Counted from the first letter of the stretch, positions 9,727 through 32,000 are shown. The stretch: 32,000 nt of DNA from Acaryochloris marina MBIC11017 (GCF_000018105.1 NC_009925.1:4890001-4922000); one strand, 5' to 3'. Notes: generated from the sequence alone by a model not told the origin. Translations and numbers: made by a program.

Positions 9727-9839
9727 CCTGTTGATCCTTCGTGATCTTTGACGATGAAATGGTCACCCTAAGTCGGGCAAAAAAAGCCCTCCAGCTGTTG
9801 AAAGCAGTGATTCAGTGCGATCTCAACCATGAGGCTAGT

Positions 9840-10727: not shown

Positions 10728-10864
10728 CGGTAACGTCCTTCTGATGCAGTTAAAAGTGCTTCTCGATTGTATCGGCTTACCTTAGAATTCGGGATAGTCT
10801 TATACCTAAGGGGCAACGTTACAGTTTTATCTGGCCCTTTGCACTCAAGAAGTCGTGCCCAACT

Positions 10865-12408: not shown

Positions 12409-12413
12409 TCAGA

Positions 12414-13724: not shown

Positions 13725-13949
13725 CGAGGGTTAAGACAGGAGGGATAAGGAAATAGATGGTTTTAAAGGTCTGTATTCAATAACGAGAGTATAAAAGGGG
13801 ATGCCGAACTGGAGGGGAAATCTATAATCTATTTCTCTGTTCCAGAACGTTTCTGTGAGAAGTTACTATATACCTTTAGTCTACTAGACGGCTGGAAGTC
13901 CCGTACTTCAGCCCCTTTCTATCTTTCACCTTCTCGGCGCTCCCGACTC

Positions 13950-14879: not shown

Positions 14880-14927
14880 AGTCATTGCCCTCAGCCTCTA
14901 CCCTCTAAAGGCGCTACTAGGTACTGC

Positions 14928-17267
14928 TTAGTTCTTAATGCCGTTGGCAACAACACCCAGGATAGGAATCTGAGCAATTTCCAGCATACGGAGGCTTTCC
15001 TTCAACAGGCTTCTGGGAACGCTGCCTAGATGGGCAACTACCATTAAGCCATCCGTTTGAGGTGCAATAATCGTTGGATCTGCCAGGTTGAGGGGTGGGC
15101 AGTCATAGATAACTAAATCAAACTGTTCAGCGAACACACCCATCAACTTCTGCATCTTTTGAGACGCCAAGATGCGGGTTGGATCCGATGGCAACATCCC
15201 TGCTGTCAGTACAAAGAGGTTCTCGGTCCCAGGCAGTGGATGAATGGTGGACTGAAGATTACCTTCCGTCGCCATCAGGTCACTCAATCCAGGGCTGTTG
15301 GGTAAGTTGAGGACGCGGCTAAGGCTGGGAGCTCGTAAATCAGCATCGACTAACAAGACTCGTCTTCCCATAGCCGCTGCAGCCTGAGCTAAGTGCATCG
15401 AGGTGGTGGATTTTCCTTCCTGGGGTGAGCAGGATGAAATAACCAGGGAAGAAATGGGTAAGTCAGGATTGAGAAGGTGCAGTTGAGAGTAAAGGGAGCG
15501 AAAGGCTTCTAGGAACGGTGAATAGGAGTACTCCGAAGCTTTCTTGTTATTGGCAAAATTACTCAAGTTAGCCAAAGAGAATTGCTCGTTATTTAGCAGT
15601 GAAGGCTGTTCTTTTTGCTCAAGCAGTGCTAGTCCAACTTCACTCTTCAGGAAGTCACTTTCCGAAGATAGGAAGGGCGTTTCTTCCAGTTGCTTTTGCT
15701 GAGGAATGATACCTAGGATTGGACGCTTTAATTCGGCCCGGAGATCCTGTAGGGAGTGAATGGCATCATTGGTTCTATCCAAAAGAATCGCAATGCCTAC
15801 ACCGAGTAAAAGACCCAGCATTGTGCCTAAAGCCAAATCACGAGGCAGATTTGCATTGGTAATGGTTCTAACAGATGGCTTCCCTAATAACTCCCAGGGA
15901 ACCTCATTTCTAGCGGCGTTGATTAAGAGTTCTTCCCGCTTTTCTAGAAACTTACGATAAGTATCGTTGGCAATCTGAAGCTTCCGCTGCAGGTTTTCAT
16001 ACTGGCGGGTAATGGCAGGCAACTGCCCCATTTTCTGTTGTAGAGAGGATTGGGCTCTCAAAATTCCCTGTCGTTTTGCTTCCAGAACTTGAAGCTGTAC
16101 CGCAGCATCTACAAATTGTTGACTCATCCCCTTCCGCAGGGAGTTTTGGTAAGGCAGCGCTGCTGTGTCGGGAATCGTACTAGATAGATTCCGGCCAAGG
16201 CTATTGCGGGCTGCCTGGTTGATGAGAGGCAACAGCTTACTACGCTGTTCCCGTAAGTCAACCACTTCCGGGTGATTACTGGTGAGTTCTGCCGACCGAA
16301 TGGCGAGTTGAGACTCAATTTCCTGCAATTGCGCTCGCAACTTCTGATAGCTGGGAGACTCTGTCAGCACCGTGGCTGCTTCTGCACCAGATGGAGTCAA
16401 TTTTAGTTGCTGTTGTAGGGTTGTATATAACTGCCGAGTCTCCATAAGCTGAATTTGATTTTCAGCTAGCTGGCCTTGAATGGCACCGGCCTGAGAGGAA
16501 ACCTGACCACCAAACGTTGCCGGGTCCAGAAGCTGATACTGTTCACGGAACCGTTGCAGTAGCTGTTCAAATTGACGAACTTGACCTTCAGCTTTGGGAA
16601 GTTGCTGATCAACAAACTGAATCGCTCTTCTTAAGTTCGTTTGTCGCTCATTGACACTGTAATCGGTGTATTGCTGAGCTACTTCAGCGGCAATCACTTT
16701 CGCAGAGTCAGGATCGGCAGCATCAAGGGTCACTGACAATATCTTGGTGGGCGCCTTGTTTTCGGCAACTCGCTCAATTGTTAGGTTCTTAGCCAACTTT
16801 TTGTAGGACAAATTGGGATATTGAGGGCTCAATTTATCCGCAATGGGTTGAAGAATTTGAGGACTCAGAAGAATTTGGATCTGCGTAGGATAATCAAGAA
16901 CTGTCTGGGAAGCCTGAGCGTTTCCTAAGTCTTGCGCATTAACTGGGGTATTGTTACCACTAATCGCGGAAACAACTTCACTTTCAGCAGTAACAGGCTC
17001 AATCAAGAGTCGAAATTGACCTTGATAGGATGATGGTCGGGTACGGCTCCAGTATAGGGTTGAAACCGCAACAGCAGCCGTCACTAAAACGACCACTGGG
17101 AAGCGCCGACGAATAGCTCCAAACAGTTGGCCAAGATTTAGGCCTCCTTCTTCTTCTACACCAGCTTGAAAAGATTGAGGAAGGAGAGTGAGCGATGGGG
17201 TAGGAGTTTCTTTAACGGTCTCCAATCGCTGTAATCTCGTCATTTTTGAGTTAGGGCTAGGTTTCAT
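14928..17267 (-). CDS. polysaccharide co-polymerase / BY-kinase-like protein (GumC/Wzc/ExoP family)
   Basis: 779 aa with an N-terminal LNLGQLFGAIRRR + TM (Wzz-like) segment and a long Gln-rich coiled coil. A second TM follows. The C-terminal P-loop domain has Walker A SPQEGKST, A' LLVDADLR and B LVIYDCPP. A possible alternative start is M9 (17243). Confidence 0.85.
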   Translation of the reverse strand: MKPSPNSKMTRLQRLETVKETPTPSLTLLPQSFQAGVEEEGGLNLGQLFGAIRRRFPVVVLVTAAVAVSTLYWSRTRPSSYQGQFRLLIEPVTAESEVVSAISGNNTPVNAQDLGNAQASQTVLDYPTQIQILLSPQILQPIADKLSPQYPNLSYKKLAKNLTIERVAENKAPTKILSVTLDAADPDSAKVIAAEVAQQYTDYSVNERQTNLRRAIQFVDQQLPKAEGQVRQFEQLLQRFREQYQLLDPATFGGQVSSQAGAIQGQLAENQIQLMETRQLYTTLQQQLKLTPSGAEAATVLTESPSYQKLRAQLQEIESQLAIRSAELTSNHPEVVDLREQRSKLLPLINQAARNSLGRNLSSTIPDTAALPYQNSLRKGMSQQFVDAAVQLQVLEAKRQGILRAQSSLQQKMGQLPAITRQYENLQRKLQIANDTYRKFLEKREELLINAARNEVPWELLGKPSVRTITNANLPRDLALGTMLGLLLGVGIAILLDRTNDAIHSLQDLRAELKRPILGIIPQQKQLEETPFLSSESDFLKSEVGLALLEQKEQPSLLNNEQFSLANLSNFANNKKASEYSYSPFLEAFRSLYSQLHLLNPDLPISSLVISSCSPQEGKSTTSMHLAQAAAAMGRRVLLVDADLRAPSLSRVLNLPNSPGLSDLMATEGNLQSTIHPLPGTENLFVLTAGMLPSDPTRILASQKMQKLMGVFAEQFDLVIYDCPPLNLADPTIIAPQTDGLMVVAHLGSVPRSLLKESLRMLEIAQIPILGVVANGIKN

Positions 17268-18246: not shown

Positions 18247-19123
18247 TCAGGACACTAGATGTAGAACATGTTCCATTGCTTCTCTGAGAGATCCAAAATG
18301 TTCTAATTGGTGACGGATGCGACTTTTAATCCAAGACCAAGACCGCTCAATCTTGTTCAAGTCAGGGGAATAAGGCGGTAAATACCAAACCTCACATCCT
18401 GCTTTTTCCACTAATTCCTGTATTTGTCCTCCCTTGTGAAAAGTGGCATTATCTATCACCAGCTTCTGCCCAGGCTTGAGCACGGGTATCAAGCAACGCT
18501 CTAGCCAAAGTTCAAACACAGTCCGATTGCAAGCTCCTTCGATCGTGAACGGTGCCATCAACTGCTTTGCTCTCAACGCCGCAATCATATTGACTCGGCC
18601 GCTTCTACGCCCAGTCTTCAAAGCATAAACCCGCTCACCTTTGGGGCCATAAGCATAGTCATACTCGTCTCGATGATCCATGCCCGACTCATCCGCATAG
18701 ACGATATCGTCTGGGTCCACGGTACTCAGACGTTTGATGAACGCTGCCCGTTTGTGCTTATCTCGTTCTCGGTACCCATATGTTTTTTTTTCGAGTAAAT
18801 CCGATTTTCTGGAGGGCTCTTGAGATGGTTCGATCACTAATCTCTCCATCCCATAGTTGAGCCATCTGAGCTTGGGTTTTATGACGATGCTTGTGGGCAA
18901 ACGCTCGAAACTTGTCCCAGTCAGTGATTTTATGGCTATGGCCAGGATGATGGACTGGCTTGGGATGCAAATCACCCGTTTCCGCCTTGAGGTGTTGCCA
19001 TTGGTTAATGGTGTTACGACTGATATCGAACAGCTCACTAGCCTCAGAAGGGCGCATCCCATCTAGCTCAATCGCATCTATCACTTTGCAACGTAGGTCG
19101 TAACTATAAATTTTGGGCATCAC
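18247..19123 (-). CDS. IS630 family transposase in two overlapping frames (orfA 19123..18758 HTH part; orfB ..18247 DDE part)
   Basis: orfA ends ..ALQKIGFTRKKNIWVPRTR*. orfB continues ..LEKKTYGYRERDKHKRAAF.. and carries the catalytic residues VYADESG, LVIDNATFH and PYSPDLNKIER. The frames meet on an A9 run (T9 on + strand, 18783-18791). orfB is +1 relative to orfA, so loss of one A or slippage gives ..FTRKKTYGY... Confidence 0.85.
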
Positions 19124-19187: not shown

Positions 19188-19430
19188 CCTAAGGCTGTCC
19201 TGCCACCTTCAAAATCACACTCTATGTTCTAGATGTTTTCTCGTGCTATTTCGGCTATATAAAATAGCACTTAGCATTCAGTGCATAACGATGACTCCAA
19301 ATCATAGAGTTAATTCACCTGATTTATGAGTCAATGGTAGAGTAGGAAAGCTTTTTGGAGATATTTATTTTGTAGGGCTAATAGGTAAAATGGATGATCA
19401 TTTAGAAAGATGCTTGCCACTTATCATAGA

Positions 19431-19469
19431 AGATGCATTATTTTTGTATAATTAAAAAATAATGCATCT
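19431..19469 (-). terminator. candidate operon-end hairpin downstream of the GT2 synthase gene
   Basis: Perfect 15-bp stem AGATGCATTATTTTT (19431-19445) pairs with AAAAATAATGCATCT (19455-19469), with a 9-nt loop. It lies 57 nt after the stop at 19526. The stem is AT-rich and has no clean trailing U-tract, hence moderate confidence. Confidence 0.4.
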
Positions 19470-19525: not shown

Positions 19526-21949
19526 TTAGGTGTTTACTAACTCGGTAGAGGCTGATTCTGCTGTGGGAGGTTGCCAAATAGCAGCCTTGATCAAAGCCCA
19601 AATCAAAGAAACATTATAAATTGCCCAGGCAGAGTTCAGAAGATGCAGGCCAGGGTTATCTAAAGTACCCATTGCATACCGAATTAGACTCCAGGAAATC
19701 CCTAATATAGTCAGAATGACAACCGTGAGTTGAGGGATTACAAGACCAACATACATCCCAGATTGACGTTGTTTAGGAGTGACTTGAAACTTAACGGGTC
19801 TACCCGTGAACACACTCCACACCGCCTTGATAAAGAGTGGAAAGAGTGCGATCGCAAATTGTTCTGCTCGCCATAGTTCCTCCTTCTTAATGCCCCAAGC
19901 AGCGGCCATAAAGGTAATCCGGTTGAGAATGAAAGCAGGCACAAAATGGATGGCAAACGCCAGGCCATAGGTTTGCACGGGTATCGCTTCAGTAAAAAAG
20001 TAAATCAGCGGACAGGCAATGAAAATCAGAGTAAAAAATCCAGAAAAGTAGCTATACATCGTCTGGAAGTATTGCAGCTGCTGCCAAACGGTGAGCCCTT
20101 TTTTGGTGAGAGGATTCTCTTGTAGCAAGACTTGAACGGTCCCTTGAGCCCATCTCAGTCGCTGTTTTAAAGTAGAGCTGAGGTCATCTGGTGCCAGGCC
20201 AACTGCTAATACTTCATGGTGATACACTGACTTCCACCCTGCAGCATGAAGTCGCATCGCCGTATTCATGTCTTCCGTAATACTGGCACTGGAGACCCCG
20301 CCCACCAGCTCAAACTCCTCTAAGCGTTTTTGATCTGCGATATATTCATCGGCGAAATTTTGCAGCCCCGTTGTGACTAACGCTTCGCGACGTAAAACCG
20401 CATTCGTGCCTGTATAAAAGGCTGAACTCATGCCATCCTTCCCTTGTTGAATCGGGCCATAGAACAGACGCGCTTGATGGCCAAAGGGGTCACCGGGAGG
20501 AAGGTTATAAAAGTCTTGTGGGGTTTGAACAAAGGCAATATCGCTGTCTTTGTATGCCCCATCCTGCATACTGTAATCAAAGAAATAGGGCAGGGCTCGC
20601 TGGAGAAAATGAGGTTTAGGAATATGGTCGGCATCTAGGGTCAAGATGAGATCGCCGGTTGTTTCTCCGGAAAACAAGGCATAGTTAATGTTGCCTGCTT
20701 TAGCATGATGGGGTTTCCCTTTAGGCTTGGGACGAGCAATATAGCGACTGCGCGCTAGGTCAATTAAGTCCTGTTCCTTTTGCTCAATGGTGCGTTGTAG
20801 GGTCTTGATTTCGGCCTTGAGATAGTCCGTCACCGAGCCATATTGATGATTGAGTAGACGAGTGCTCTGTTGCAGGCTATGGAGATAACCGGCTAACTGC
20901 TGAGTTTGATCTTGAATCCCAGTGGATTCTGGTGAAAAGAACTTGATGGCAATTAAACACTGACGTTGATCGGGAGTCGGATTGTAGCTGATAAAGTCAG
21001 TGAATTGGCTCATAATGCCAAAGCCTCTCCCTCCTTCAGCCATTAGATCCACATCTTCCAGGGATTTGAAGATTTTGTCGGGGTTGTCTAGACCAGGACC
21101 TCGGTCCCAAATCTGCAGAACTAAGACATTGCTGGAAATGTTTAATTCCAAATCAATCGGTGTGGTGGGGGGAAGATCCTTATGGGCATATTTCAAGACA
21201 TTATCCACACCCTCACCCAATACCGTTTGCAGCTCTAACCATGGTTTCATGGGAATGTGAGGTTGCTGAAGCTGGCTAAACCAGTCCAGGGCTACTTGGG
21301 CATTCTCTCGTTTGGTTTCTAGGGTCAACGTATGAGACTTTAATTTCTCCTCTCCAGCCGCAATTTCTGAGGCAAGACTTTGGAGATGCTGCAACTGTGC
21401 CTTGAGGTGTAGACGTTGCGAGTTGATCTCGTCTGCAGCGGCACGAAGCTGTGGTGTTTGCAAATCCCCAATACATAATTGCTCCGACATTTGCCGCATT
21501 TGAGGAGAATTTCCGTCATCCAGTACATAGACCTTCAACTTTGTCGCAGGATAGTCCATGTTTAGAGCTGCTTTCGCCGTTTCTCGAACCATCTCAACAG
21601 GTTCGTTGTAGCAGGTGATAAACACATCAACACTCGGCCATTCAGCTTCTGGCAATGCGGGGCGCATTTGTCTGAGGGGTTTGACATCTCGGACAATGGG
21701 CCGCCAGAGACCGATAAAGAACATGACGCCGCCGATATAGCTATAAATTTCCGCGAGTAATAGCGGAAGGGCTAACCACAGGGCATTGAAGTTAACCGAA
21801 TTGAGGATCCGCCACTGCAAATACCAGCCCCCAAAAATGAGGTTTATGATCACCAGAAACCGAAAGAGTAGGGTCCTATCCTTTAGTCTGATGCGGATAT
21901 TGCCAGAAAAAGCAGGGGTATTTTCAATAATGGGGACGGCATTAGTCAT
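19526..21949 (-). CDS. processive family-2 glycosyltransferase (cellulose-synthase-like beta-glycan synthase) with an embedded GHKL ATPase-like insert
   Basis: 807 aa with 2 N-terminal and about 6 C-terminal TM helices. GT2 motifs are CYNEP, VLDDG (aa 142-146), HAKAGNIN (415-422), LDADH, FVQTPQDF, SITEDM and QRLRWAQG. No PilZ-like C-terminus is present. Confidence 0.9.
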   Translation of the reverse strand: MTNAVPIIENTPAFSGNIRIRLKDRTLLFRFLVIINLIFGGWYLQWRILNSVNFNALWLALPLLLAEIYSYIGGVMFFIGLWRPIVRDVKPLRQMRPALPEAEWPSVDVFITCYNEPVEMVRETAKAALNMDYPATKLKVYVLDDGNSPQMRQMSEQLCIGDLQTPQLRAAADEINSQRLHLKAQLQHLQSLASEIAAGEEKLKSHTLTLETKRENAQVALDWFSQLQQPHIPMKPWLELQTVLGEGVDNVLKYAHKDLPPTTPIDLELNISSNVLVLQIWDRGPGLDNPDKIFKSLEDVDLMAEGGRGFGIMSQFTDFISYNPTPDQRQCLIAIKFFSPESTGIQDQTQQLAGYLHSLQQSTRLLNHQYGSVTDYLKAEIKTLQRTIEQKEQDLIDLARSRYIARPKPKGKPHHAKAGNINYALFSGETTGDLILTLDADHIPKPHFLQRALPYFFDYSMQDGAYKDSDIAFVQTPQDFYNLPPGDPFGHQARLFYGPIQQGKDGMSSAFYTGTNAVLRREALVTTGLQNFADEYIADQKRLEEFELVGGVSSASITEDMNTAMRLHAAGWKSVYHHEVLAVGLAPDDLSSTLKQRLRWAQGTVQVLLQENPLTKKGLTVWQQLQYFQTMYSYFSGFFTLIFIACPLIYFFTEAIPVQTYGLAFAIHFVPAFILNRITFMAAAWGIKKEELWRAEQFAIALFPLFIKAVWSVFTGRPVKFQVTPKQRQSGMYVGLVIPQLTVVILTILGISWSLIRYAMGTLDNPGLHLLNSAWAIYNVSLIWALIKAAIWQPPTAESASTELVNT
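20714..21478 (-). other. ~250-aa insert between the DDG and HAKAGN motifs: coiled coil, GHKL (RsbW/SpoIIAB-like HATPase) core, coiled coil
   Basis: N-box EGVDNVLKYAH (21182-21214), G1 box WDRGPGLD (about 21092-21109) and G2 box GGRGFGI (about 21017-21034). Heptad-like Gln/Leu-rich segments flank the core (aa ~165-225 and ~345-400). From memory, BcsA-type synthases have only a few tens of residues between these GT2 motifs. Confidence 0.65.
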
Positions 21950-21963
21950 GAGACTGTGTATCC

Positions 21964-22155
21964 TTACTGCTTGACTAAAGAGTGATGATGTTGGGTGCTA
22001 CTAACAATATTTTTGAGAATCACCACAGTACCGTTGCGGTTATGTTGAGTATTGACACTTAGATGCTCTTTCTCACAACATCTCGCAAAATATTTGTCTT
22101 GAGATGGTCTTGAATTGGTCACTAGACTATCGACTACTAAAGGGAGAGTTTCCAT
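21964..22155 (-). CDS. hypothetical 63-aa protein wedged between the triple-domain gene and the synthase gene
   Basis: ATG ORF lying 20 nt after the upstream stop and 14 nt before the downstream start. It has no recognisable motif, TM segment or obvious SD. Only position supports it. Confidence 0.3.
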   Translation of the reverse strand: METLPLVVDSLVTNSRPSQDKYFARCCEKEHLSVNTQHNRNGTVVILKNIVSSTQHHHSLVKQ

Positions 22156-22175
22156 TCGTCTGTGGGTTGAAGAAG

Positions 22176-25100
22176 TTATTTATTATTGTTTTTGGACAAA
22201 GCGCTGTTGGGAGCCCCCCAATAGGTGCCGGTCGAATCAGTAATGAGCTGCAATTTGGGTTTGGGGGTTGGCGGTAGGCCTGTACCAATTTCTTCGTTGG
22301 CTACGGCTTTCCACCAGGGGGAGCTACGGGAGATATCCGCAACGAGTAACGGTTGGCGATCGCGCAAGCGATACAAGATAGACTGCAACACAATACTGTT
22401 GGTGGAGCCACTAAAACCAGGATTAGATTGGCCCGATTGCTCATTCACCCCTTCGTAAAAACCCAATACGGGGTTATACAGGTCTAAAGCGGACTGATAT
22501 AGCTCTTGAGCATAGTCATTGTCAGGGAAAATCGCATGGTAGGCGAAAGCGGCAGCACTACTGATCACGCGTTGCTCAGACTTTAAGGCTTGGTCAGCGG
22601 ATGAGGCCGCCCAAGCTTTTTTATCTTTGCTGATCAAGCTGCTATGGATCACGTAGGGGGCTTTCGTCGTTAAGGTGGTTCCAGCTGCCGTCAATACCCC
22701 TTCACGGTTATATCGTTCTTGTTGAGCTTGCAACATGGGTAGAACTAATTGCCGCATTTGGGGATCTAGGCCCAGTTCTAAGCCGTAAACCATAAACGGA
22801 TTGCTAACGATCTGTTGATCCTTATCAGACTTCTTGCGAGGTCGGTCTCGCTCAATCGGAATTTGGAACCCTTCTAATTCGGCTGTTTTGTAATTCCCGC
22901 CTACCGCCGCTTCTGTTACATCAAAGCCCCAAAGCTGGAAGCCTCGGGCTGCATATTCTTCATAGCCCAAGCGAGAATCTGGTTTGACTCGGATTAAACG
23001 ACGACCATTGCTGTCAGCTTCGACAAAGGCACTGTGGATACGACCGTCTCGAACAACCCGTAAGAACGACCAGTCCAACACAATCTCATCAATAATGTCG
23101 GTATAGCCCTTATGACACCCCTTGAGATTGTGGAGCGCCAACAAGAAACGGCCCACGTCTAAACCGGACCAGCCGATCCCTTCAGGAGAAGGGTTCATGC
23201 CGTAATCTACCGCCTCAAGGGTGCGAATATCATAGTTGCGATGGGGCAATTCACCACCATGTAACGGTAACCGTTTTATTGCACCTAAAAATAAGCGAAC
23301 TCGCTGATCAAATTCTTCGATGGTAATCACATCCAGGGATTCAGCCGCTTGAAGCGCTGCGATATAGTCTCCCATCCCCCAAAGGGTTGCAACTTTCATG
23401 TCGCTGCGATCGCTCACCAGTCCCGTACTGGATTCATAATTCGCTTCAAAGTATTTCCAGGCTGCTTTGGCATACCGCTTCTCAGCTAGGTGAGGTCGGC
23501 GAGTTAAGTCCTGGCAGACCGAAGAATCTTTGGGTTTTCGTCCCGACAAGATGGGAGCCACAGCCACCTGAACGGGCTGATTCGGCGGTTCCGGCTGTTC
23601 TATTTTGCCGATGGGTTCTGGTGAAGGAGCTGGGGCTGGGGTTGATGCGACAACTGGAGCTGGGACTACAGTAGGTGCAAGAGTCGGCAAGGATGTCGTC
23701 GTTTGACCAGGGGAGAATTGGGGACTAGCACCATCCCCTTCAATAAATTGGCAGCAAACCACTAGGTTCGGATCAATTGCGCTAGGTTGAGATACCGTTT
23801 GCTGAGTGGGAGACTGAGCAACGACAGGGCTAGGTGCTGGCGCAGCACTTGGGCCAGGCGTTGGGGCTGGAGCGGGTGTCGGTGCTGGCGCAGGTGCCGG
23901 GGCGGGTGCTGGAGCTGGAGCGGGTGCCGGAGTTGGGGCGGGTGCCGGAGCTGGGACGGGTGCCGGAGTTGGAGCAGGTGCCGGGGCTGGGGCGGGTGCT
24001 GGAGCTGGAGCGGGTGCCGGAGTTGGGGCGGGTGCAGGAGCTGGAGTCGGGGCAGCAGCTACATTATCTGGAGCTGGATAACCTTCTGCAACGATTGTAT
24101 TTTGGGGACTTCCAGTAGACGCATTAACACCATTCCCACCGATCAACGGTCGATATCCCCTGGCCTTGTAATAAAGGATTTCCATGATCAGTCCGTTGGT
24201 ATTTCCGGTCAGAGCTTGATTAGGCTGATTGGTTTCTTCATACAATCCTGCATAAAAGCCGCCACCATCCGGGCTCATCAACCCCTTCGCGACTTCAAAC
24301 AATTGATCTGCATAGGGTTCATCGGGAAAGATATACCGCCAGCCAAACGCAGCTTTGGTACTAATACTGCGCTTGTCAGGATGAAGCTCATTTTTTTCGG
24401 TAATCGTAGCCCAAGCCACGCCATTGGAAAAAACAGTGTTGTAAAGGAAGTAAGGCGGGCCATCAATATTGTCTTCTGTCACAGCTGTAAGCTGTCCAGT
24501 TGCTTGATATCGACGTTTTTGAACTTCTAGAACCCGAGCGGCATAGTCTCGCATTTGGTCGCCCAGAAAACCAAATTCAATCCCATCCAAAATATAAGAT
24601 TCACTCACCACATAGTTATTGGCATTTGTTTCTTGATAGGCCCGAGTATCTACAGGAATCTGCACCCCATAGATTTCGACCATTTGGAAGGGTTCAAAGG
24701 ATAGTGCTTTGGGGACAGAGAACCCCCATAACTCATACCCCCGAGCAGCATATTCTTCATAGCCTAGGCGGCCTTCTTGTACAGGTAGGGTTTGGCCATC
24801 TTCCAGTACCGTTGCCCCAAACATATTGCCATCTTCAATGGAACGTTCAATCGCCCAGCGATCCACAATAGCCTGTAACCAGTCGGCATACTGAGGATGG
24901 CAGGTACGGAGAACATGGAAAGCCGCCAGAATTCGACCAATATCAAGAGCCGACCAGCCAATCCCTCGCTCAATGGGATTGTTACCGTAATCCACCATGT
25001 CGCCATTGGCAGCGTTATAGACCTTATTCGGCAGGCTGTCTTCAAATAGTTTCAATCCGGCTAAGGACGTTAAAAACTTATTCAGTTTCTGATCCAATTC

Positions 25101-26828
25101 CTCTTGCGGGATCAGGTTCATCCACCGGGCTGCATTCAGAGCCATCAGGTAGTTGCCCATATCCCATAAGGTGCCGGAAGGATATCCTCCCGACGAATTG
25201 GTAAACCCAGTTGCTTCTTGATAGTTATTGACAAAATATTGCCAAGCAGTGCGAGCGTAGGTTTCTTCCTCTGGTGTTAAAGGATTGGTAATGCCCCCAC
25301 AGGAATTATCGCCAGGTGGCGGAGGGGGAGCAGCAATAGGTGCCGGAGATGGAGCTGGGGTAGCCGCAGGTGTGGGAGAGGGGGCTGGTGCCGGGGCTGG
25401 AGCCGGAGATGGAGCTGGGGCTGGAGCCGGGGCTGGGGCTTGGGCTGATGCAGGTGCAGGAAACTCTTCCATGACCACGGTCGTTTCAGGGTTTCCAGTC
25501 GAAGCACTAACGCCATTCCCCCCAATCAGTGGCCGATTGCCTCTGGCCTTGTAATAGAGGATTTCCATAATCAGCCCGTTTGTGTTTCCGGTTAAGGATT
25601 TATTGGGCTGTTGGGTCTCCTCATACATACCAGCAAAAAAACCGCCACCATCCGGACTCATTAATCCCTTGGCAACCTCAAAAAGCTGTTGAGCGTAGGG
25701 ATCATCTGGGAAAATATAGCGCCAACCAAATGCTGCCTTCGTGCTAATACTGCGTTTATCAGGGTGGAGTTCGTTCTTTTCCGTGATGGTGGCCCAGGCG
25801 ACACCATTAGAGAAAACAGTGTTGTAGAGGAAGTAGGGCGGGCCATCAATGTTATCCTCAGTCACTGCTGTCAATTGGCCTGTGGCCTGATAGCGTCGCT
25901 TCTGAACTTCAAAGACCCGGGCGGCAAAGTCCCGCATTTGATCGCCTAAAAAACCAAATTCAATGCCATCTAAGATGTAGGACTCACTGACAACATAGTT
26001 ATTCGCATTGGTGTCTTGATAATTACGCGTATCTACAGGAATTTGCACCCCATAGATCTCGACCATTTTGTAAGGTTCAAAGGACAATGCCTTCGGAACC
26101 TGAAAATTCCAAAGTTCGTATCCTCTGGATGCATACTCCTCATACCCGAGGCGGCCTTCCTGCACTGGTAAGGTTTGACCATCTTCAAGGACTGTAGCCC
26201 CATACATATAGCCATCTTGAACGGACCGATCCACCGCCCAGCGATCAATGATGGATTTTAGCCACTCCGCATATTGAGGATGGCAGGTGCGCAAGACATG
26301 AAACGCTGCCAGAATACGGCCAATATCTAGGGCGGACCAACCAATCCCTCGCTCAATAGGGTTGTTGCCATAATCCACCATGGCCCCATCGGCTGCGTTG
26401 TACACCTTATTCGGCAAGCTATCTTCAAATAGCGTTAACCCAGCCAGAGATGATAGGAATTTATTTAGTTTTTGATCGAACTCTTCTTGGGGAATCAGGT
26501 TCATCCATCGGGCCGCATTGAGGGCCATCAGGTAGTTTCCCATATCCCACAAGGTGCCTGAAGGGTACCCCCCGGTAGAGTTGGTAAAGCCTGTCGCTTC
26601 TTGATAGTTATTCAGAAAGTATTGCCAAGCCGTGCGGGCGTAGGTTTCCTCCTCTGGTGTCAGAGGATTTGTAATCGCACCACATTCATTGGCTTCTTGG
26701 GCATAGGCAACCTTCTCTGTAGTAAAAGGTAGCCACAGAGGAGGAGAAAGAATGCCTAATGCCAACCAGGCAACTAGTCTAACTATTGGCAGAGGACGAC
26801 GTCGCTTCATCAGATAGGATGGCCCCAA
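22176..26828 (-). CDS. secreted 1550-aa protein with three tandem copies of a ~390-aa alpha-helical domain (I believe DUF3131-like; possible glycan-binding/glycoside-hydrolase-like fold), joined by Pro-Ala linkers
   Basis: Sec-type signal (MKRRRPLPIVRLVAWLALGIL...AYA-QE; the likely true start is M7 at 26810). Domain copies lie at about 25501-26684, 24121-25301 and 22350-23516. They share the blocks AW.YF..NY...TG, TLW(D/G), LP.(K/R)(V/N)Y, VDYG, GIGWS..D(I/V)GR, EGRLGYEEYA.RG..LW, LTA, S(T/S)(K/A)AAF and GFY.G.(Y/N)E. Confidence 0.85.
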   Translation of the reverse strand: MGPSYLMKRRRPLPIVRLVAWLALGILSPPLWLPFTTEKVAYAQEANECGAITNPLTPEEETYARTAWQYFLNNYQEATGFTNSTGGYPSGTLWDMGNYLMALNAARWMNLIPQEEFDQKLNKFLSSLAGLTLFEDSLPNKVYNAADGAMVDYGNNPIERGIGWSALDIGRILAAFHVLRTCHPQYAEWLKSIIDRWAVDRSVQDGYMYGATVLEDGQTLPVQEGRLGYEEYASRGYELWNFQVPKALSFEPYKMVEIYGVQIPVDTRNYQDTNANNYVVSESYILDGIEFGFLGDQMRDFAARVFEVQKRRYQATGQLTAVTEDNIDGPPYFLYNTVFSNGVAWATITEKNELHPDKRSISTKAAFGWRYIFPDDPYAQQLFEVAKGLMSPDGGGFFAGMYEETQQPNKSLTGNTNGLIMEILYYKARGNRPLIGGNGVSASTGNPETTVVMEEFPAPASAQAPAPAPAPAPSPAPAPAPAPSPTPAATPAPSPAPIAAPPPPPGDNSCGGITNPLTPEEETYARTAWQYFVNNYQEATGFTNSSGGYPSGTLWDMGNYLMALNAARWMNLIPQEELDQKLNKFLTSLAGLKLFEDSLPNKVYNAANGDMVDYGNNPIERGIGWSALDIGRILAAFHVLRTCHPQYADWLQAIVDRWAIERSIEDGNMFGATVLEDGQTLPVQEGRLGYEEYAARGYELWGFSVPKALSFEPFQMVEIYGVQIPVDTRAYQETNANNYVVSESYILDGIEFGFLGDQMRDYAARVLEVQKRRYQATGQLTAVTEDNIDGPPYFLYNTVFSNGVAWATITEKNELHPDKRSISTKAAFGWRYIFPDEPYADQLFEVAKGLMSPDGGGFYAGLYEETNQPNQALTGNTNGLIMEILYYKARGYRPLIGGNGVNASTGSPQNTIVAEGYPAPDNVAAAPTPAPAPAPTPAPAPAPAPAPAPAPAPTPAPVPAPAPAPTPAPAPAPAPAPAPAPAPTPAPAPTPGPSAAPAPSPVVAQSPTQQTVSQPSAIDPNLVVCCQFIEGDGASPQFSPGQTTTSLPTLAPTVVPAPVVASTPAPAPSPEPIGKIEQPEPPNQPVQVAVAPILSGRKPKDSSVCQDLTRRPHLAEKRYAKAAWKYFEANYESSTGLVSDRSDMKVATLWGMGDYIAALQAAESLDVITIEEFDQRVRLFLGAIKRLPLHGGELPHRNYDIRTLEAVDYGMNPSPEGIGWSGLDVGRFLLALHNLKGCHKGYTDIIDEIVLDWSFLRVVRDGRIHSAFVEADSNGRRLIRVKPDSRLGYEEYAARGFQLWGFDVTEAAVGGNYKTAELEGFQIPIERDRPRKKSDKDQQIVSNPFMVYGLELGLDPQMRQLVLPMLQAQQERYNREGVLTAAGTTLTTKAPYVIHSSLISKDKKAWAASSADQALKSEQRVISSAAAFAYHAIFPDNDYAQELYQSALDLYNPVLGFYEGVNEQSGQSNPGFSGSTNSIVLQSILYRLRDRQPLLVADISRSSPWWKAVANEEIGTGLPPTPKPKLQLITDSTGTYWGAPNSALSKNNNK
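23826..24075 (-). repeat. (Pro-Ala/Pro-Thr)n linker-coding low-complexity repeat with an exact 45-bp direct repeat at 90-bp period
   Basis: GGCGGGTGCTGGAGCTGGAGCGGGTGCCGGAGTTGGGGCGGGTGC occurs at 23901-23945 and again at 23991-24035. It encodes ..APAPAPTPAPAPAPAPAP... Confidence 0.9.
24121..26684 (-). repeat. intragenic tandem duplication, period 1383 nt (461 codons), two domain-plus-linker units
   Basis: By eye, copy A (25501-26684) and copy B (24121-25301) encode peptides identical at roughly nine of ten positions. The DNA differs at many synonymous sites, for example Leu CTG vs TTA and Glu GAG vs GAA within NPLTPEEETYA. Confidence 0.9.
25313..25460 (-). repeat. (Pro-Ala)n linker-coding low-complexity repeat between domain copies A and B
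   Basis: Encodes PAPASAQAPAPAPAPAPSPAPAPAPAPSPTPAATPAPSPAPIAAPPPPPG. The DNA is GGNGCN-type hexamer repeats. Confidence 0.9.
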
Positions 26829-26892
26829 TCAAAAAATGTAAAGGAAATACAAACCCTGTTGTAGTCGAGCAGGGAAATAGGGCTAAATCCGA

Positions 26893-28383
26893 TTAAGTTT
26901 CCAGCTCAGAAACACCAGCCCAAACGGCTAAAGGTTTGCCAACCTTTTTGAATAATAAGCACTCTAAGATAATGCCATTATTATTAGCTGTCAATACGGC
27001 ATTTGGCTCATCTAAGGTCTCATAAAAACCACTGTACCAACCTTTTTTAGAACCGACTTTTTCTTGCACAAAAGAAAACAGCTTTTTGGTGTAATCCGTG
27101 TTGTAAAGAACATGCCAACCAATCGCCGCTTTCGTACTAACAAAGCGAAGATGATTGTAGTTTTCTCCGGTGTCACTAATGGTTGCCCAGGGTTTACCGT
27201 TTACATACAAGGTGTTGTAAACAAAATAGGGTTCCCGATCTAAATTATCTTCCGTGATAGCGGTCAATTGCTTCGTCGCTTTATAACGAGCTTCTTGAGC
27301 CGCTAACATCCGATCGGCATAGGCCTTAGGCAGGGCTTTAAAGCCTGTCTCAATGCCATCCAAGAAGAATGGCTCACTTAATACGTAATTATTCGCTTCC
27401 GAATTTTCGCGATCGCGCACATCAAATGGAATGCTGTGGCCATAGAGTTCAACGAAGGCCGATTTGTTGTCATAATCTAAAGCCTTATCAACATTGAGTC
27501 CCCAGAGTTTCAATCCATAGGCTGCATAATCTTCGTACCCTAAGCGTCCTTCCTGGTTGTATTGCTCTTGACCATCCTTGATACTGGTGCCGAACATTTG
27601 GCCATCTTTCGTCAACCGCTTGACATCCCAGGCTTTCCACACTGCCGTAGTTTGGGGTTCAAACTCGGGATATTTAGCAGCAATAATTTTTAACCATAGG
27701 GCAATTCGTCCCAGGTCAATTGCTGACCAGCCAATCTCTTCCCGTTTGTCTAGAGAACCATAATTTACCGGCATAAGGTTTTGGGAATTGTAGACCTTAT
27801 TGGGAAGCTCTCCCTTATACAATTCCAGTTTGGCAAGAGTGGTCAACATCTTGCTCATGGTTGCTTTGAATTCCTTTTCTGAAATCAAGTCCAATTCTTT
27901 GGCACTGACCACAGCCGCCATTGCTGCGCTTTGATCCCAAAGGGTCACCGATTGAAATTGATCAACCGAATTAGCCAACCCTGTGTCTGGATTAATATTG
28001 GTCTCAAAATAGCTCCAAGCCTTCTTGGCGACCTTTAGCTCGGCAGGGGACAGTTTACCGACATGTGCTGGGATATAAGGTGTGGTTGTTTTTGCAATTT
28101 CTTGTTTGCTCACCCGATCACCTGGAAATTTAATTGAGCGGGAATCAGGTTTTTCATTCTTGGCCTTGGGTTTCGCCTTGGCGGTGTCAGAGGTCTTTGA
28201 ACTAGGAGCGGTAGCAGTGGTCGTAGGGCCAGACTCTTGAGTCGATTCTTTTTGGGAAAGATTGCCCGATAACATTTCTAAACCTGCGATCGCAGCGACG
28301 GCTGTCACTACCCCCCCTAAATAGGTGAGAAAAGCAAGTTTTTTAGGTGGCATTTCGAAATTAGAATTCATGACTGCTCCCAC
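26893..28383 (-). CDS. membrane-anchored protein with a single copy of the same ~390-aa (DUF3131-like) domain
   Basis: 496 aa with one N-terminal TM (LAFLTYLGGVVTAVAAIAGL) and a Ser/Thr/Lys-rich spacer. The domain then shares AW.YF, TLWD, LPNKVY, EIGWSAIDLGR, EGRLGYEDYAAYG.KLWG, LTAITEDN, STKAA and WYSGFYE with the neighbouring gene. The likely start is M5 (28371). Confidence 0.85.
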   Translation of the reverse strand: MGAVMNSNFEMPPKKLAFLTYLGGVVTAVAAIAGLEMLSGNLSQKESTQESGPTTTATAPSSKTSDTAKAKPKAKNEKPDSRSIKFPGDRVSKQEIAKTTTPYIPAHVGKLSPAELKVAKKAWSYFETNINPDTGLANSVDQFQSVTLWDQSAAMAAVVSAKELDLISEKEFKATMSKMLTTLAKLELYKGELPNKVYNSQNLMPVNYGSLDKREEIGWSAIDLGRIALWLKIIAAKYPEFEPQTTAVWKAWDVKRLTKDGQMFGTSIKDGQEQYNQEGRLGYEDYAAYGLKLWGLNVDKALDYDNKSAFVELYGHSIPFDVRDRENSEANNYVLSEPFFLDGIETGFKALPKAYADRMLAAQEARYKATKQLTAITEDNLDREPYFVYNTLYVNGKPWATISDTGENYNHLRFVSTKAAIGWHVLYNTDYTKKLFSFVQEKVGSKKGWYSGFYETLDEPNAVLTANNNGIILECLLFKKVGKPLAVWAGVSELET

Positions 28384-28584
28384 TTGGAATAATGACTGAA
28401 ATAGTCAGTGATTAGACAATATTGATTGGTGAATAGGACAACTGACTAGAGAAAGTTTTCTTAATTCTTGAAAATCAGAAAAAAATATCAATAATAATCG
28501 ATTAAAATGAACTTTCTTCCGTTAAAAGAGGCTTGTCTGCTCTAGAATTCCCAACTTTACAATAGGTTTAACACTCTTAAAAAA

Positions 28585-30591
28585 TTAAAAATCGATTCTC
28601 AACTGCCCAGAAAAGATATGGCTATTACTGGCCCCAGATCCACTTGAAATGATGTTGGTGAGAACATAACCAAAATCAAGCTCTACATTATCGGCCAAAG
28701 ACGCTGTACATTTCGCTTGTAATCCTCGACCGGTACTTTTGCCCCCATTCACGACTTGGTTGCCAATAGAGGCAGCAAATTGGCAGGTTAAGGGGTCAAA
28801 AATTTTGCCTTTCCAACCCACTTCAGCGTTGTAGAGTAAAAAACTGAGGGGAGAAAAATAGCCACTCTCTGATTCTAGATCTTCCGCAAAGTTCCAGGTG
28901 AATACGTTTGCAGCGACAGAAAAAGGTCCGATTTTTCGTTCTAATCGGCTGAAAGACTGGATTTCTTGGTTGCCATCATTGAAAAATCCAGCTTGGAACA
29001 GCCCAAAGAAGGTGGTTTTACTATCAATTTGCCAAAATACGCTTGGACGAATCCGCCAATAGCTAATTTCATTCTCTAAAGTCGTGGTGTTGAATTTATA
29101 AGGACCATGCTCGACTTCTCCAGAAACCAAGACTTGTCCAAAAAGGGATGTTTTCGCTCCCACCTTAAATGTAGGCTGAGGATCTAAACGATTAAATACT
29201 TCAGCACCCGCCGCTACATTGATGGAAACCTCTCCAACTTCAGTCTCCCATCCTAAAATCAGCGGAATATTTTTGACGGGTTCTTGCCCTTCCTGGCTAT
29301 AGGTGTTGACCCCTGTTGTAAAGGTGACAACATCTCCATTCCGAACTCGAAAAGTTATAATTTCTTCGATTTTTAAGTTTTCTTTGCCAAACTCATCGAA
29401 ATCTAGCTTGAAGTCAGTTGTCGAACTCTCTAAGACAATAAAAGACACCTGTGGATCATCAGCGGCTCCAATCGGGGTTAATTCAGTAGGGAACCGATCT
29501 GGAGGTGTTTTTTGAGGCGGTTGAAGAGGGAGGTCTGGAGGTACCGTAGGCGATTGAGCGGTCGTTTGTGCAGGAACCTTAGGTGTGCCTTGCACTAGCA
29601 CAGGCTGAGAGGTAGGTGAAATATTTTGCTGCCGGGCGGGTGAAGGTAGAGATCGAAAACGAGGGGTAGATGAAGGGGGCGAGCTGTCCCGAAAAGCTTC
29701 TGGAACAGTCGGTTGGGACCTTTGTTGCCGCGTTGGGGGCAGACCTGATGGACGGACAGCAGGGCTAGAATGAGGTGCTTGATGAGCAGGCGTTGTCGCA
29801 CCCCCTGTCGCAGAATCCTTGGGAGAAGTAGCAGAGGGTATGTTTCGAGGAACGGGACCTGAAGGACGGACCGTTGGACTATGGATAGGGGCACTATCAA
29901 CGGGAGTTACCGCCCCTCCCTCAAAAGAACCTGGGAGTGAGGGATGCTTTGGGAGATCTGTTGGTCGCGGAGCTGGACCTGAAGGTCGGGCCGCCGGACT
30001 ATGGGCTGGTGTTGCTGCACCGCCTTGAAAATCATCGGGTGAGGAGCGAAGAGGAATATGGGTTGGCCGAAGAGCTGGACCTGAAGGACGAGCTGCTGGA
30101 CTATTGGTAGGAGGTCTAGGGGTTTCCGCACCTCCGTGAAAATTATCTGATGGGGGCAGTGGTGAGGCTATTGGCCGAGGAGCTGGACCTGAAGGACGGG
30201 CCGCTGGACTAATAATTAGTAAGGGTGAATTAGGTGGAACTGGGGACGGAGAATATGGCTGAGAATTCTCCACTAGCGGAACTCCATCCGCCTCTGCTGG
30301 AATATTCACATCAGTTGGAAATGAAGCTCCGCCTTGGGGGCCTGCTCCAGATGGGCTGGTCGGGGTAATGGCTGGTGAGGAGGGGAAAGGTTGGGGAGAA
30401 GCCTGGGGACGTGCAGGCTTTTTCTGAGAACGGTCAGGTTGAACAATAGGCTGGAGCAAGCCGGGATTCAACTCATAGGGGCCTGCAACTAACATCGGCT
30501 GTTGAATCACAGGCGAGGATAACTCCTGAGCCTTTGGAGTATTGAGGTCAGTTTGACAGCCTAAGCATAGCGTTGCCAACACGGAAAACAT
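28585..30591 (-). CDS. putative outer-membrane lipoprotein: Pro-rich repeat stalk plus C-terminal beta-barrel (BcsC-C-terminal-like porin, tentative)
   Basis: 668 aa. The N-terminus MFSVLATLCLGC has a lipobox-like LGC. Residues ~25-375 are Pro/Ser/Ala-rich with five 34-40-aa repeats (SPAARPSGPAPRP...GGA.TP). Residues ~380-668 show an alternating beta-strand pattern, a GYFSP motif I associate with BcsC-type barrels, and the terminal ..FSGQLRIDF (C-terminal Phe). Confidence 0.75.
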   Translation of the reverse strand: MFSVLATLCLGCQTDLNTPKAQELSSPVIQQPMLVAGPYELNPGLLQPIVQPDRSQKKPARPQASPQPFPSSPAITPTSPSGAGPQGGASFPTDVNIPAEADGVPLVENSQPYSPSPVPPNSPLLIISPAARPSGPAPRPIASPLPPSDNFHGGAETPRPPTNSPAARPSGPALRPTHIPLRSSPDDFQGGAATPAHSPAARPSGPAPRPTDLPKHPSLPGSFEGGAVTPVDSAPIHSPTVRPSGPVPRNIPSATSPKDSATGGATTPAHQAPHSSPAVRPSGLPPTRQQRSQPTVPEAFRDSSPPSSTPRFRSLPSPARQQNISPTSQPVLVQGTPKVPAQTTAQSPTVPPDLPLQPPQKTPPDRFPTELTPIGAADDPQVSFIVLESSTTDFKLDFDEFGKENLKIEEIITFRVRNGDVVTFTTGVNTYSQEGQEPVKNIPLILGWETEVGEVSINVAAGAEVFNRLDPQPTFKVGAKTSLFGQVLVSGEVEHGPYKFNTTTLENEISYWRIRPSVFWQIDSKTTFFGLFQAGFFNDGNQEIQSFSRLERKIGPFSVAANVFTWNFAEDLESESGYFSPLSFLLYNAEVGWKGKIFDPLTCQFAASIGNQVVNGGKSTGRGLQAKCTASLADNVELDFGYVLTNIISSGSGASNSHIFSGQLRIDF
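29740..30220 (-). repeat. in-frame tandem repeats (102-120 nt units) coding the Pro-rich stalk
   Basis: The core GGACCTGAAGG(A/T)CG.. occurs at 29855, 29975, 30077 and 30185, with spacings of 120, 102 and 108 nt. A fifth degenerate unit lies near 29740. Confidence 0.85.
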
Positions 30592-30708: not shown

Positions 30709-32000
30709 TCATTTTTCTGTCTGTTTAGAGGAAATAGGTCGCCATCCAGGTAATACACTTTGCCGTTGACGCGCCACGACTAGGACATCATCATCGACAT
30801 TCTTAGTAATTGTGGAGCCTGCCGCCACGGTAACATTTGCCCCTAAGGTAATCGGAGCCACTAAGACGCTGTTTGCACCTGTTTTGGTGCGATCGCCAAT
30901 CTGAGTTGGATGTTTATTCACCCCGTCATAATTGGCAGTAATGGTTCCTGCACCAATATTGACCTGGGTTCCTAAAGTGGCATCCCCTAGATAAGACAGA
31001 TGGGCGACGTTGGTGCGATCTCCAATGGTCGTTTTTTTCATTTCAACGAAATTACCGACCCGGCATTTCTCACCAATCTGCACATTCCCTCGTAGATGCG
31101 TATAAGGCCCTATCCGGGAGTTGTCGCCCACTCGGCTGTCCGAGATAACAGAATAAAGAACCTGCACATTGGTGCCAATATGGCTATTCTCAATCAAACT
31201 CCCAGGACCGATACGGCTACCGGTATCAATTTTGGTATCGCCCCGTAGGTGGGTTTGAGGCTCGATAATGACATCGGTCCCCAATTCAACGGTTTCATCT
31301 ATGGTAATGCTGTCTGGATCCATAATTGTCACGCCAGCAACCAGCCAATCATCCTTAATCCGATCTTGCAAAATCTTGTAGGCGGTGGCTAATTGTTTGC
31401 GATCGTTAATGCCTAGAATTTCTTGATAATCATCGACATCCAGAACCATAACTGGGTCTAAGTAGTTAACTGCATCGGTCAGATAATATTCTTTTTGATC
31501 ATTTTCAGCTTTCAGGTTTGGTAATACTTTGGCTAAAGCCGACCAGCGAAAACAATAGACCCCTGCATTGATGCGTTGATTTTGACGTTGGGCAGGGGTA
31601 CAGTCTCGATCTTCAATAATTTCTTGCAAATGCATTTGAGCATCGCAAAAGACCCGACCATAACCTTTGGGATTGGGCAATTGGGCTGTCAAAATGGTCG
31701 CTGCATTCTGATGCTCTTGATGGGTTGCCAACATTTTTTGCAACGTCCCAGGTCGGAGTAAGGGGACATCGCCATTGAGGACGAGCAAGTCTCCTTCAAA
31801 GCCTTCCATCACAGGCAGTACTTGCTGGACGGCGTGGCCTGTGCCCAATTGCTCCGTTTGTTCCACAAATTCTAAGTTCGGCCAGCCTTGCATTTCTGTC
31901 CGCACTTGATCAGCGGAATAGCCCACAATCACAATCTGACGGGATGGAGAAAGGTTTTGGGTGCTGCTTAATACTCGCTCAATCAGGCTCTTACCCCCTA
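30709..32000 (-). CDS. glmU: bifunctional UDP-N-acetylglucosamine pyrophosphorylase / glucosamine-1-phosphate N-acetyltransferase, 5' end beyond the window
   Basis: The frame stays open to the window edge; my translation upstream of the track start reads ..[32 protein letters not shown]. The nucleotidyltransferase half and the C-terminal left-handed beta-helix hexapeptide repeats are present ([35 protein letters not shown]). Confidence 0.9.

Follow-up and report, generated by a model that had tools for sequence, protein, structure and literature searches.

Which partners serve the cyanobacterial cellulose synthases that lack a PilZ domain, how these enzymes are regulated and by what mechanism they work were all listed as open in a 2025 review (PMC12430437), and the same questions are raised by a group of genes in the chromosome of Acaryochloris marina MBIC11017, which exact-sequence look-up gave as the source of the 32,000-nucleotide stretch analysed here (the window, to which all coordinates refer unless a related locus is named). 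An initial annotation of the window, made from the sequence alone, had proposed an undescribed, synthase-dependent exopolysaccharide secretion operon of five co-directional minus-strand open reading frames (ORFs) running from 30591 to 19526, and the same ORFs, all in one direction and with the same gaps of 201, 64, 20 and 14 nt, were found again.

The locus is probably a machine for β-glucan synthesis and export of the Bcs/Pga type, but with a periplasmic module and a switch of another kind. Its reading as a synthase-dependent secretion locus is well founded, given a BcsA-type synthase of glycosyltransferase family 2 (GT2) and a barrel protein of the PgaA/BcsC/PelB type. That the operon is undescribed is true in part: the class of its synthase has already been named and one member of that class, SynPCC7002_A2118, has been knocked out, while for the accessory genes no description was found in the searchable literature. 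What is new is the conserved accessory set, together with the putative partner-switching gate provided by a kinase within the synthase.

The synthase and its insert

The synthase gene (19526-21949, minus strand; 807 aa, ABW29834.1) encodes a protein that matches Escherichia coli BcsA (7lby, E 1.9e-53) in two blocks, with residues 31-158 corresponding to BcsA 201-326 and residues 413-791 to BcsA 336-690. The DDG, HAKAGN, DAD, TED, QRLRW and FQVTPK motifs are intact, and they are invariant in 14 orthologues. The plant-type Cellulose_synt family (PF03552) is also matched (E 1.9e-34), and the scores against TIGR03030 (CelA; 325.6 bits, cut-off 699.1) and NF008558 (257.7, cut-off 992) stay below equivalog level, with the MdoH models reaching only 30 bits (cut-off 419) and 20 bits (cut-off 550). 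Hydrophobic segments that resemble transmembrane helices number two at the N-terminus and at least three to four towards the C-terminus. Neither Pfam nor NCBIfam gave a PilZ match in this protein and, since its C-terminus comes directly after the last membrane segment (BcsA residue 690), no PilZ domain is present.

Without PilZ, and with an insert at residues 159-412 between DDG and HAKAGN, the enzyme falls into a known cyanobacterial class, ‘CesA with PCR domain’, which is defined by the lack of PilZ, an insertion between U1 and U2, and two N-terminal and several C-terminal transmembrane helices (PMC12430437). The BcsA-like GT2 core and the position of the insertion, between U1 (DDG) and U2 (DxD), are shared with that class. 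Where the literature on the class sees in the insert a plant-like region and names no partners, a SpoIIAB-type kinase and a set of conserved accessory genes are found here.

Indeed, the roughly 250 residues that separate the two BcsA-like blocks (20714-21475, minus strand) have as their core, at residues 216-328 (nt 20966-21304), a HATPase_c_2 domain (PF13581, E 2.5e-13, 50.6 bits, cut-off 27.4), flanked on both sides by helical, coiled-coil-like segments, so that the initial description of a multi-pass processive GT2 with a coiled-coil/GHKL insert proved apt. SpoIIAB and RsbW are the best family and structure matches of the insert (anti-sigma F, TIGR01925; SpoIIAB 1tid, E 0.005), and the N-box E/N, DxGxG (G1) and GxGf (G2) motifs, aligned to SpoIIAB, are invariant in 14 orthologues. 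Judged by these motifs, the insert is a predicted serine-kinase domain of the SpoIIAB/RsbW type, with intact ATP-binding boxes, mounted on a coiled-coil stalk. Homology of the stalk to the plant-conserved region (P-CR) was considered and set aside, no PDB match to any plant CesA being obtained; the likeness to the plant CesA region is one of position only.

Synthase homologues with a fused kinase are common in cyanobacteria. In Nostocales and Microcoleus, residues ~205-350 are missing from the synthase, and a stand-alone kinase gene nearby, whose product is 34-39% identical to the insert, adjoins the STAS and phosphatase genes. This pattern of fusion and fission indicates a functional tie between kinase and synthase, and the two sizes reported for the CesA-with-PCR class, 788 aa (with an extra insertion) and 693 aa, match the fused and unfused forms. 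In one further locus (L059, 9917-12220) a 760-aa synthase carries an insert that looks like a degenerate kinase, its N-box region being altered; STAS and barrel genes follow.

Control of the synthase

The gene neighbourhood was surveyed by hidden Markov model (HMM) annotation of 80 cyanobacterial genome loci and through the precomputed Pfam annotations of five loci. The conserved order is barrel, DUF3131 protein with one domain, DUF3131 protein with two to three domains, synthase, STAS and SpoIIE, and synteny across the 80 cyanobacterial genomes is strong, which removes the refuting condition named in the initial annotation, orthologues without synteny. Linkage was counted in those 43 cyanobacterial loci that had 8 kb or more on either side, with SpoIIE represented by a model of that domain alone, free of the receiver, PAS and GAF parts. 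In 41 of the 43 loci the synthase gene has a STAS antagonist gene no more than 10 kb away, and a SpoIIE phosphatase gene, often carrying receiver, PAS and GAF domains in the relatives, is nearby in 31. DUF3131 genes occur in 35 loci (with at least three domains in 32), and a barrel homologue stands beside the synthase cluster in 29. The kinase is fused into the synthase in 24 loci and forms a separate nearby gene in 16; Nostocales have it as a separate gene, and so do proteobacteria. The phospho-acceptor motif of the STAS proteins, F-[MI]-[ND]-S-[ST]-G, is kept as in SpoIIAA, with serine in 72/72 aligned sequences.

From the kinase insert and the linkage of STAS and SpoIIE genes in relatives, the synthase is most likely gated by a partner-switching phospho-switch. 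Thus, the gating signal, which the initial annotation had left open after noting the lack of PilZ, can be narrowed: PilZ is indeed missing, and the RsbW/SpoIIAB-like insert, with STAS and SpoIIE linked to it in relatives, marks out the probable route. The three domain types are those of known partner-switching systems (SpoIIAB-SpoIIAA-SpoIIE, RsbW-RsbV-RsbU, HenR-All4160-Alr3423 of Anabaena and SypE-SypA of Vibrio fischeri), and the STAS phospho-serine motif and SpoIIE phosphatases fused to receivers are further points in common. Direct partner-switching control of a polysaccharide glycosyltransferase, with STAS fused to the enzyme, has been reported in Anabaena (bioRxiv 10.64898/2026.04.08.717354). 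As with All4160, the target here is apparently a polysaccharide enzyme; in contrast to the known systems, it is the kinase, not STAS, that is built into the catalytic domain of the enzyme, and no sigma factor is evident.

The classical role of such HATPase_c_2 domains is that of an anti-sigma factor, SpoIIAB and RsbW are the best matches here, and one may ask whether the insert is a true anti-sigma factor, so that the synthase would tether a sigma factor, STAS binding would free it and transcription would be what is controlled. This appears quite improbable: no sigma-factor gene is found among the called neighbours in the five loci with precomputed Pfam annotation, the kinase sits inside the catalytic domain of an enzyme in 24 of the 43 loci, and the Anabaena case provides a cyanobacterial precedent for partner switching on a polysaccharide enzyme (bioRxiv 10.64898/2026.04.08.717354). 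A switch acting on the synthase itself is the reading retained in the following. In the locus of Acaryochloris sp. IP29b_bin.148 (L010), a hybrid histidine kinase with an ethylene-receptor-like N-terminal region (ETR1_N), two receivers and Hpt (13799-16567, plus strand) adjoins the STAS gene and may feed sensory signals into the switch.

The periplasmic DUF3131 proteins

Two genes encode the proteins expected in the periplasm. The first (26893-28383, minus strand; 496 aa) carries a single DUF3131 domain (PF11329, E 1.8e-157) behind one N-terminal transmembrane-like segment (residues 16-34) that would anchor it in the inner membrane; the second (22176-26828, minus strand; 1550 aa) has a signal-like N-terminus, as expected of a secreted protein, and three copies of the domain (E 0), joined by (Pro-Ala)n linkers that appear as tandem repeats at 23855-24060 and 25338-25447. 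The initial annotation had recognized, without naming the family, a domain of ~390 aa present once and then three more times, the membrane anchor, the Sec signal and the linkers, all of which agree with these results. Within the long protein, copies 1 and 2 (24114-26696, minus strand) share 91% identity, the mark of a recent tandem duplication, against 36% between copies 1 and 3; in two relatives (L006 and L008) the corresponding protein has only two copies.

A single-sequence search of the PDB with DUF3131 returned nothing useful, in contrast to searches with a profile and with a predicted structure. The profile reached a GH189 domain, the cyclisation domain of cyclic β-1,2-glucan synthase (8wy1, E 1.5e-4), and the AlphaFold2 (AF2) model, with a predicted local distance difference test (pLDDT) value of 91, is an (α/α)6 fold for which the top 20 Foldseek matches all belong to the β-1,2-glucanase clan or to Cgs (E 4e-12 to 3e-7, TMq 0.62-0.69), among them GH144, GH162, GH189, GH192-type proteins, EeSGL1, PgSGL3 and Cgs itself. 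The statement that the locus holds no known glycanase gene has, therefore, to be revised, the predicted fold being that of the β-1,2-glucanase clan (GH-S).

Conservation was assessed over 209 domains from 88 loci, taking in all paralogous copies and the proteobacterial proteins. At least 206 of the 209 retain residues S121, D124, R127, Y187, E246, R267, W300, Y332, E356 and N370, which speaks for a functional pocket, sugar-binding or catalytic, in each copy. DUF3131 is a candidate new glycoside hydrolase (GH) family. It shares with the SGL/GH-S clan (GH144, GH162, GH189, GH192-194) the (α/α)6 barrel, and its profile reaches GH189, but its genetic link is to a cellulose-synthase-like GT2 and not to β-1,2-glucan utilization genes. 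DUF3131 is not among the groups in the paper that defines the clan (PMC12102758), and its identification with ‘Group 4’ (PgSGL4) is unlikely, PgSGL4 being a 1142-aa β-propeller/carbohydrate-binding-module protein.

The family extends beyond cyanobacteria. Searches of plasmids with tblastn retrieved loci with three DUF3131 genes each, at 40-44% identity, from Pantoea, Salmonella, Vibrio and Paracoccus. In Pantoea stewartii pDSJ10 the three DUF3131 genes are accompanied by kinase, STAS, SpoIIE and a cellulose-synthase-like GT2 without PilZ; the Paracoccus plasmid repeats this set and adds OpgC, GH16 genes and a protein with TPR and PgaA_barrel domains; and an accessory block of the same content, OpgC included, has been described in Klebsiella (PMC12974863). 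In the proteobacterial loci the membrane-anchored DUF3131 copy overlaps the end of the GT2 gene. A mapping of three DUF3131 paralogue types across phyla, drawn from pairwise identity, is only suggestive. Further glycan-active genes accompany some of the loci and may hint at polymer chemistry: a GH141-like β-helix protein in Pleurocapsa (L003, 2027-4144), GH16 and OpgC in Paracoccus (L088, 5677-7332 and 21535-22371), and GH2 with a globin in Pantoea (L087, 19943-22138).

Whether the domains cut the glucan or simply hold it is a separate issue. As a non-catalytic, glucan-binding scaffold that guides the chain to the porin, DUF3131 would replace BcsB and the TPR region but not BcsZ. Such a role would suit the three to five copies per locus with one of them membrane-anchored, the overlap of the anchored proteobacterial copy with the GT2 gene end (just as bcsB follows bcsA), the lack of TPR and BcsB in the cyanobacterial loci and the periplasm-spanning reach that Pro-Ala-rich linkers allow. 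A pure scaffold, however, would not as a rule require glycosidase-type acidic residues, and D124, E246 and E356 are kept in at least 206/209 domains, in all copies and in both phyla; moreover, Paracoccus has both DUF3131 proteins and a TPR-barrel protein, so that DUF3131 is not a simple TPR substitute. A purely non-catalytic function is, thus, held to be rather unlikely, and a glucan-processing module, probably catalytic, is preferred.

The 63-aa ORF in the spacer before the synthase gene (21964-22155, minus strand), which the initial annotation counted as an operon member, belongs to the history of the same family. It has no family match in Pfam or NCBIfam, its product is 46% identical to that of the closest relative (L007) though the DNA is 83% identical, it is interrupted by in-frame stops in L006 and L008, and its sequence matches, in the same frame, the last part of an additional DUF3131 ORF of L010 (8733-9983). 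Poor protein conservation, interruption in relatives and the alignment with L010 together identify it as a relic and not a gene, i.e. the C-terminal remnant of a further DUF3131 copy that has been lost, and a fifth gene is ruled out. In L010 the extra DUF3131 gene is intact.

The outer-membrane porin

The first gene of the series (28585-30591, minus strand; 668 aa, ABW29838.1, AM1_4867) encodes the barrel protein. Its N-terminal region of about 340-380 aa is Pro-rich and repeated (24% Pro, at least four RPSGxxPR units), the repeats being visible in the protein and undetected by Tandem Repeats Finder at the DNA level, and its C-terminal 289 aa (nt 28588-29454) are modelled by AF2 as a β-barrel of about 16 long strands with a pLDDT of 94.8. 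A Pro-rich stalk followed by a β-barrel, as first proposed, is thus what the composition and the model return.

Foldseek places PgaA first (4y25, TMq 0.80, E 1.4e-10), followed by BcsC (6tzk/9b8a, 0.69) and PelB (9h80, 0.67). The sequence is more distant: BCSC_C scores 16.6 bits against a Pfam cut-off of 23.5, and a profile of the barrel family finds BcsC as its one match in the PDB (E 1.2), with a GYFSP-like motif aligned to BcsC. By its model, therefore, the protein is a predicted outer-membrane porin of the PgaA/BcsC/PelB type without TPR repeats, a fold that argues against the view of the operon as an assembly of non-canonical, unrelated modules. With these porins it shares the barrel of ~16 strands, while its sequence remains below Pfam thresholds; no TPR match was obtained in Pfam, and the TPR domain is replaced by the Pro-rich repeat region in A. 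marina and by a short stretch bearing AAPENFNP in other cyanobacteria.

The protein had also been read as a lipoprotein. The lipobox is not conserved, LCLGC becoming LCLDC in the closest homologue (88% identical), and the lipoprotein reading is rejected; most homologues have an ordinary signal peptide followed by the AAPENFNP motif. In most cyanobacterial barrel homologues this motif comes right after the signal peptide (N-termini P0242-P0296), and in A. marina it has diverged to GPYELNPGL (residues ~37-45). The AAPENFNP-type motif might be a docking peptide.

Nature of the polymer

The only knockout study concerns SynPCC7002_A2118, a protein of 788 aa that is larger than the Nostoc enzyme through an extra insertion. 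The mutant loses a cellulase-sensitive layer, labelled by a cellulose-binding domain, between peptidoglycan and outer membrane, has less surface polysaccharide and grows slowly at low salinity, and no other ces genes were identified by the authors (PMC4851311). By analogy with this phenotype, cellulose or a cellulose-like β-glucan is taken as the default, and most likely, product of the A. marina locus.

Several observations weigh against the combined picture of a cellulose-like product, a DUF3131 glucanase and a partner-switching gate. The putative orthology between the A. marina synthase and A2118 is judged from what has been published on the latter (788 aa, no PilZ, extra insertion). Identity between DUF3131 and the glucanases is 10-15%, at a TM of 0.62-0.69, and the clan's known members act on β-1,2-glucan and not on cellulose. 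Furthermore, the clan is defined by a catalytic Glu/Phe/Tyr triad, namely E239, F286 and Y367 of XcSGL (PMC12102758), to which the near-invariant E246, W300/F288 and Y332 of DUF3131 may or may not correspond. As to the switch, the kinase with its N, G1 and G2 boxes is in place, but neither STAS nor SpoIIE was found in the window by HMM and tblastn searches, nor in the closest relative, L007, which means that the partners are encoded elsewhere or that the switch is orphaned. Finally, a 74%-identical relative (L005, 8526-13091) has glmU, a fused synthase and wzc without barrel or DUF3131 genes, so that an accessory block of 8.6 kb has been gained or lost within the Acaryochloris lineage.

Some of the same facts can be arranged differently. 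If the product were a non-cellulosic glucan (β-1,2-linked, mixed or other), with an osmoprotective role in periplasm or wall, the DUF3131 proteins would be dedicated glucanases or transglycosylases and the locus an alternative to OpgH/OpgG/OpgD. All the folds nearest to DUF3131 are those of enzymes acting on β-1,2-glucan, the cyclisation domain of cyclic glucan synthase among them; OpgC is found in the Klebsiella block and in the Paracoccus cluster, the latter with GH16 genes at its flanks, and slow growth of the Synechococcus 7002 cesA mutant at low salinity only is a classic periplasmic-glucan phenotype (PMC4851311). Nevertheless, the GT2 scores 325 bits with cellulose synthases against 30 with MdoH/OpgH and also matches the plant-type cellulose synthase family; the A2118-dependent layer is cellulase-sensitive and bound by a cellulose-binding domain (PMC4851311); a glucan confined to the periplasm would hardly call for an outer-membrane export porin; and likeness in fold does not fix the substrate, as the clan member PgSGL4, without β-1,2-glucanase activity, illustrates. 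A non-cellulosic product is on this balance doubtful, and a cellulose-like β-glucan is kept as the working assignment.

A wider and distinctly tentative proposal is that the PCR-type synthases of cyanobacteria and of Pantoea, Klebsiella, Salmonella, Vibrio and Rhodobacterales are no simple cellulose synthases but the core of a distinct, ancient osmoprotective-glucan system, with a kinase-STAS switch docked on the synthase and DUF3131 as a new family of chain-remodelling glycoside hydrolases or transglycosylases. If it were true, although we deem it unlikely, DUF3131 might introduce or cut non-β-1,4 linkages and so yield a wall or periplasmic glucan.

Relation to known systems

The Bcs system (BcsA-BcsB-BcsC-BcsZ) likewise unites in one operon a GT2 synthase, a periplasmic (α/α)6 protein and a 16-strand barrel; its c-di-GMP (cyclic diguanosine monophosphate) PilZ gate, BcsB, TPR and GH8 components are all missing here, and a kinase/STAS module and three to five DUF3131 domains are found instead. 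Neither BcsB nor GH8 (BcsZ) had a family match in any locus or window protein (Pfam, NCBIfam), and the initial statement that BcsB, a TPR scaffold, PilZ and a HlyD-type adaptor are lacking is in line with the scans of the same databases. These also returned none of the parts of the tripartite cyanobacterial Xcs system, which consists of a PilZ-bearing XcsA, a HlyD-like XcsB and TolC (PMC12430437).

With the osmoregulated periplasmic glucan (OPG) system (OpgH, OpgG/OpgD, OpgC) the locus shares a GT2 and periplasmic proteins of a glucan-cutting type, and OpgC occurs in proteobacterial DUF3131 clusters; here, however, the GT2 is not OpgH-like (30 bits, cut-off 419), no GH186 is present, Pfam gave no match to OpgG/OpgD and a porin gene is included. 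In Nostoc, alr3756, annotated as ‘unknown protein’, is in an operon with alr3757, which fits the DUF3131-GT2 order of the Nostoc loci.

Boundaries of the locus and the possibility of decay

Some 60-100 nt past the synthase stop, at ~19427-19468 (minus strand), a perfect 16-bp AT-rich inverted repeat, with the arms AAGATGCATTATTTTT...AAAAATAATGCATCTT, may mark the end of the transcript. No canonical intrinsic terminator was predicted after the synthase gene, where the inverted repeat was not picked up, and promoter-like and terminator-like sites in the window are not more numerous than in shuffles. The hairpin and AT-rich island given as the downstream boundary are thus real, the repeat being perfect and the GC content low (0.37-0.43 between 17 and 20 kb), but an IS630-family transposase in two overlapping frames (18247-19123, minus strand; DDE_3, E 3.2e-40; NF033545) had been overlooked there.

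This insertion sequence (IS) lies between the synthase gene and wzc, i.e. at the position of the STAS gene in relatives, and one relative, L006, has an IS1 (11988-12380) in the same spacer. With the 63-aa relic and with L005, which has no accessory genes, it could be taken to mean that the system is decaying in this strain, an IS element having displaced the regulators and a DUF3131 copy having been lost, so that the locus might be unregulated or inactive. Such decay seems, on the whole, very unlikely: the four large ORFs are intact with their catalytic and ATP-binding motifs, full-length 807-aa and 668-aa proteins are present in the Acaryochloris strains MBIC11017, CCMEE 5410 and ‘Moss Beach’, and DUF3131 copy number varies also among functional-looking loci.

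Upstream, glmU was found at 30709-31932, bounding the operon as first described, and since in the loci compared its adjacency is limited to the Acaryochloris lineage, the neighbourhood looks coincidental, in agreement with the reservation already made in the initial annotation. Just downstream, a Wzc/GumC-type tyrosine autokinase with a Wzz domain (14928-17267, minus strand), syntenic in the Acaryochloris lineage, is part of a different polysaccharide pathway of the Wzx/Wzy type. The remainder of the window, 1-14000, holds housekeeping genes (RibD_C, an S41 C-terminal protease, a GT4 glycosyltransferase, Mg-chelatase ChlH/CobN, a divergent PAP2 (DUF212), a polyprenyl synthetase, FolD, two M16 peptidases and a GHMP kinase) and is syntenic with L005 and L006. 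Antisense to the (Pro-Ala)n linker, a plus-strand ORF of 247 aa (23787-24530), rich in Cys, Trp, Arg and Gly, looks like a by-product of the GC-rich repeat and not a gene.

A working model and its implications

In the mechanism that we propose, the inner-membrane GT2 would polymerize a UDP-sugar, presumably, and thread the chain through its own channel. In place of the c-di-GMP-dependent PilZ domain, its catalytic domain bears the coiled-coil stalk tipped with the RsbW/SpoIIAB-type kinase, on which unphosphorylated STAS might dock and change the activity of the synthase, in either the activating or the inhibiting direction. Phosphorylation of the STAS serine by the kinase would reset the switch, and the SpoIIE/PP2C phosphatase, in many cases joined to receiver, PAS and GAF sensors, would re-arm STAS. 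In the periplasm, one anchored and three secreted DUF3131 domains would bind the newly made glucan and probably cleave or transglycosylate it, thus taking the place of both BcsB and BcsZ, and the PgaA/BcsC-type barrel would pass the polymer through the outer membrane, with the Pro-rich segment replacing the TPR scaffold.

The locus and its relatives provide a testable parts list for the PilZ-less synthases, namely a kinase in the synthase with STAS and phosphatase partners, the glucanase-like DUF3131 domains of the periplasm and a TPR-less porin. The occurrence of the same set on plasmids of enterobacteria and Rhodobacterales suggests that exopolysaccharide production is widely switched by a route independent of c-di-GMP, with a bearing on biofilm biology and on the engineering of cyanobacterial cellulose production.

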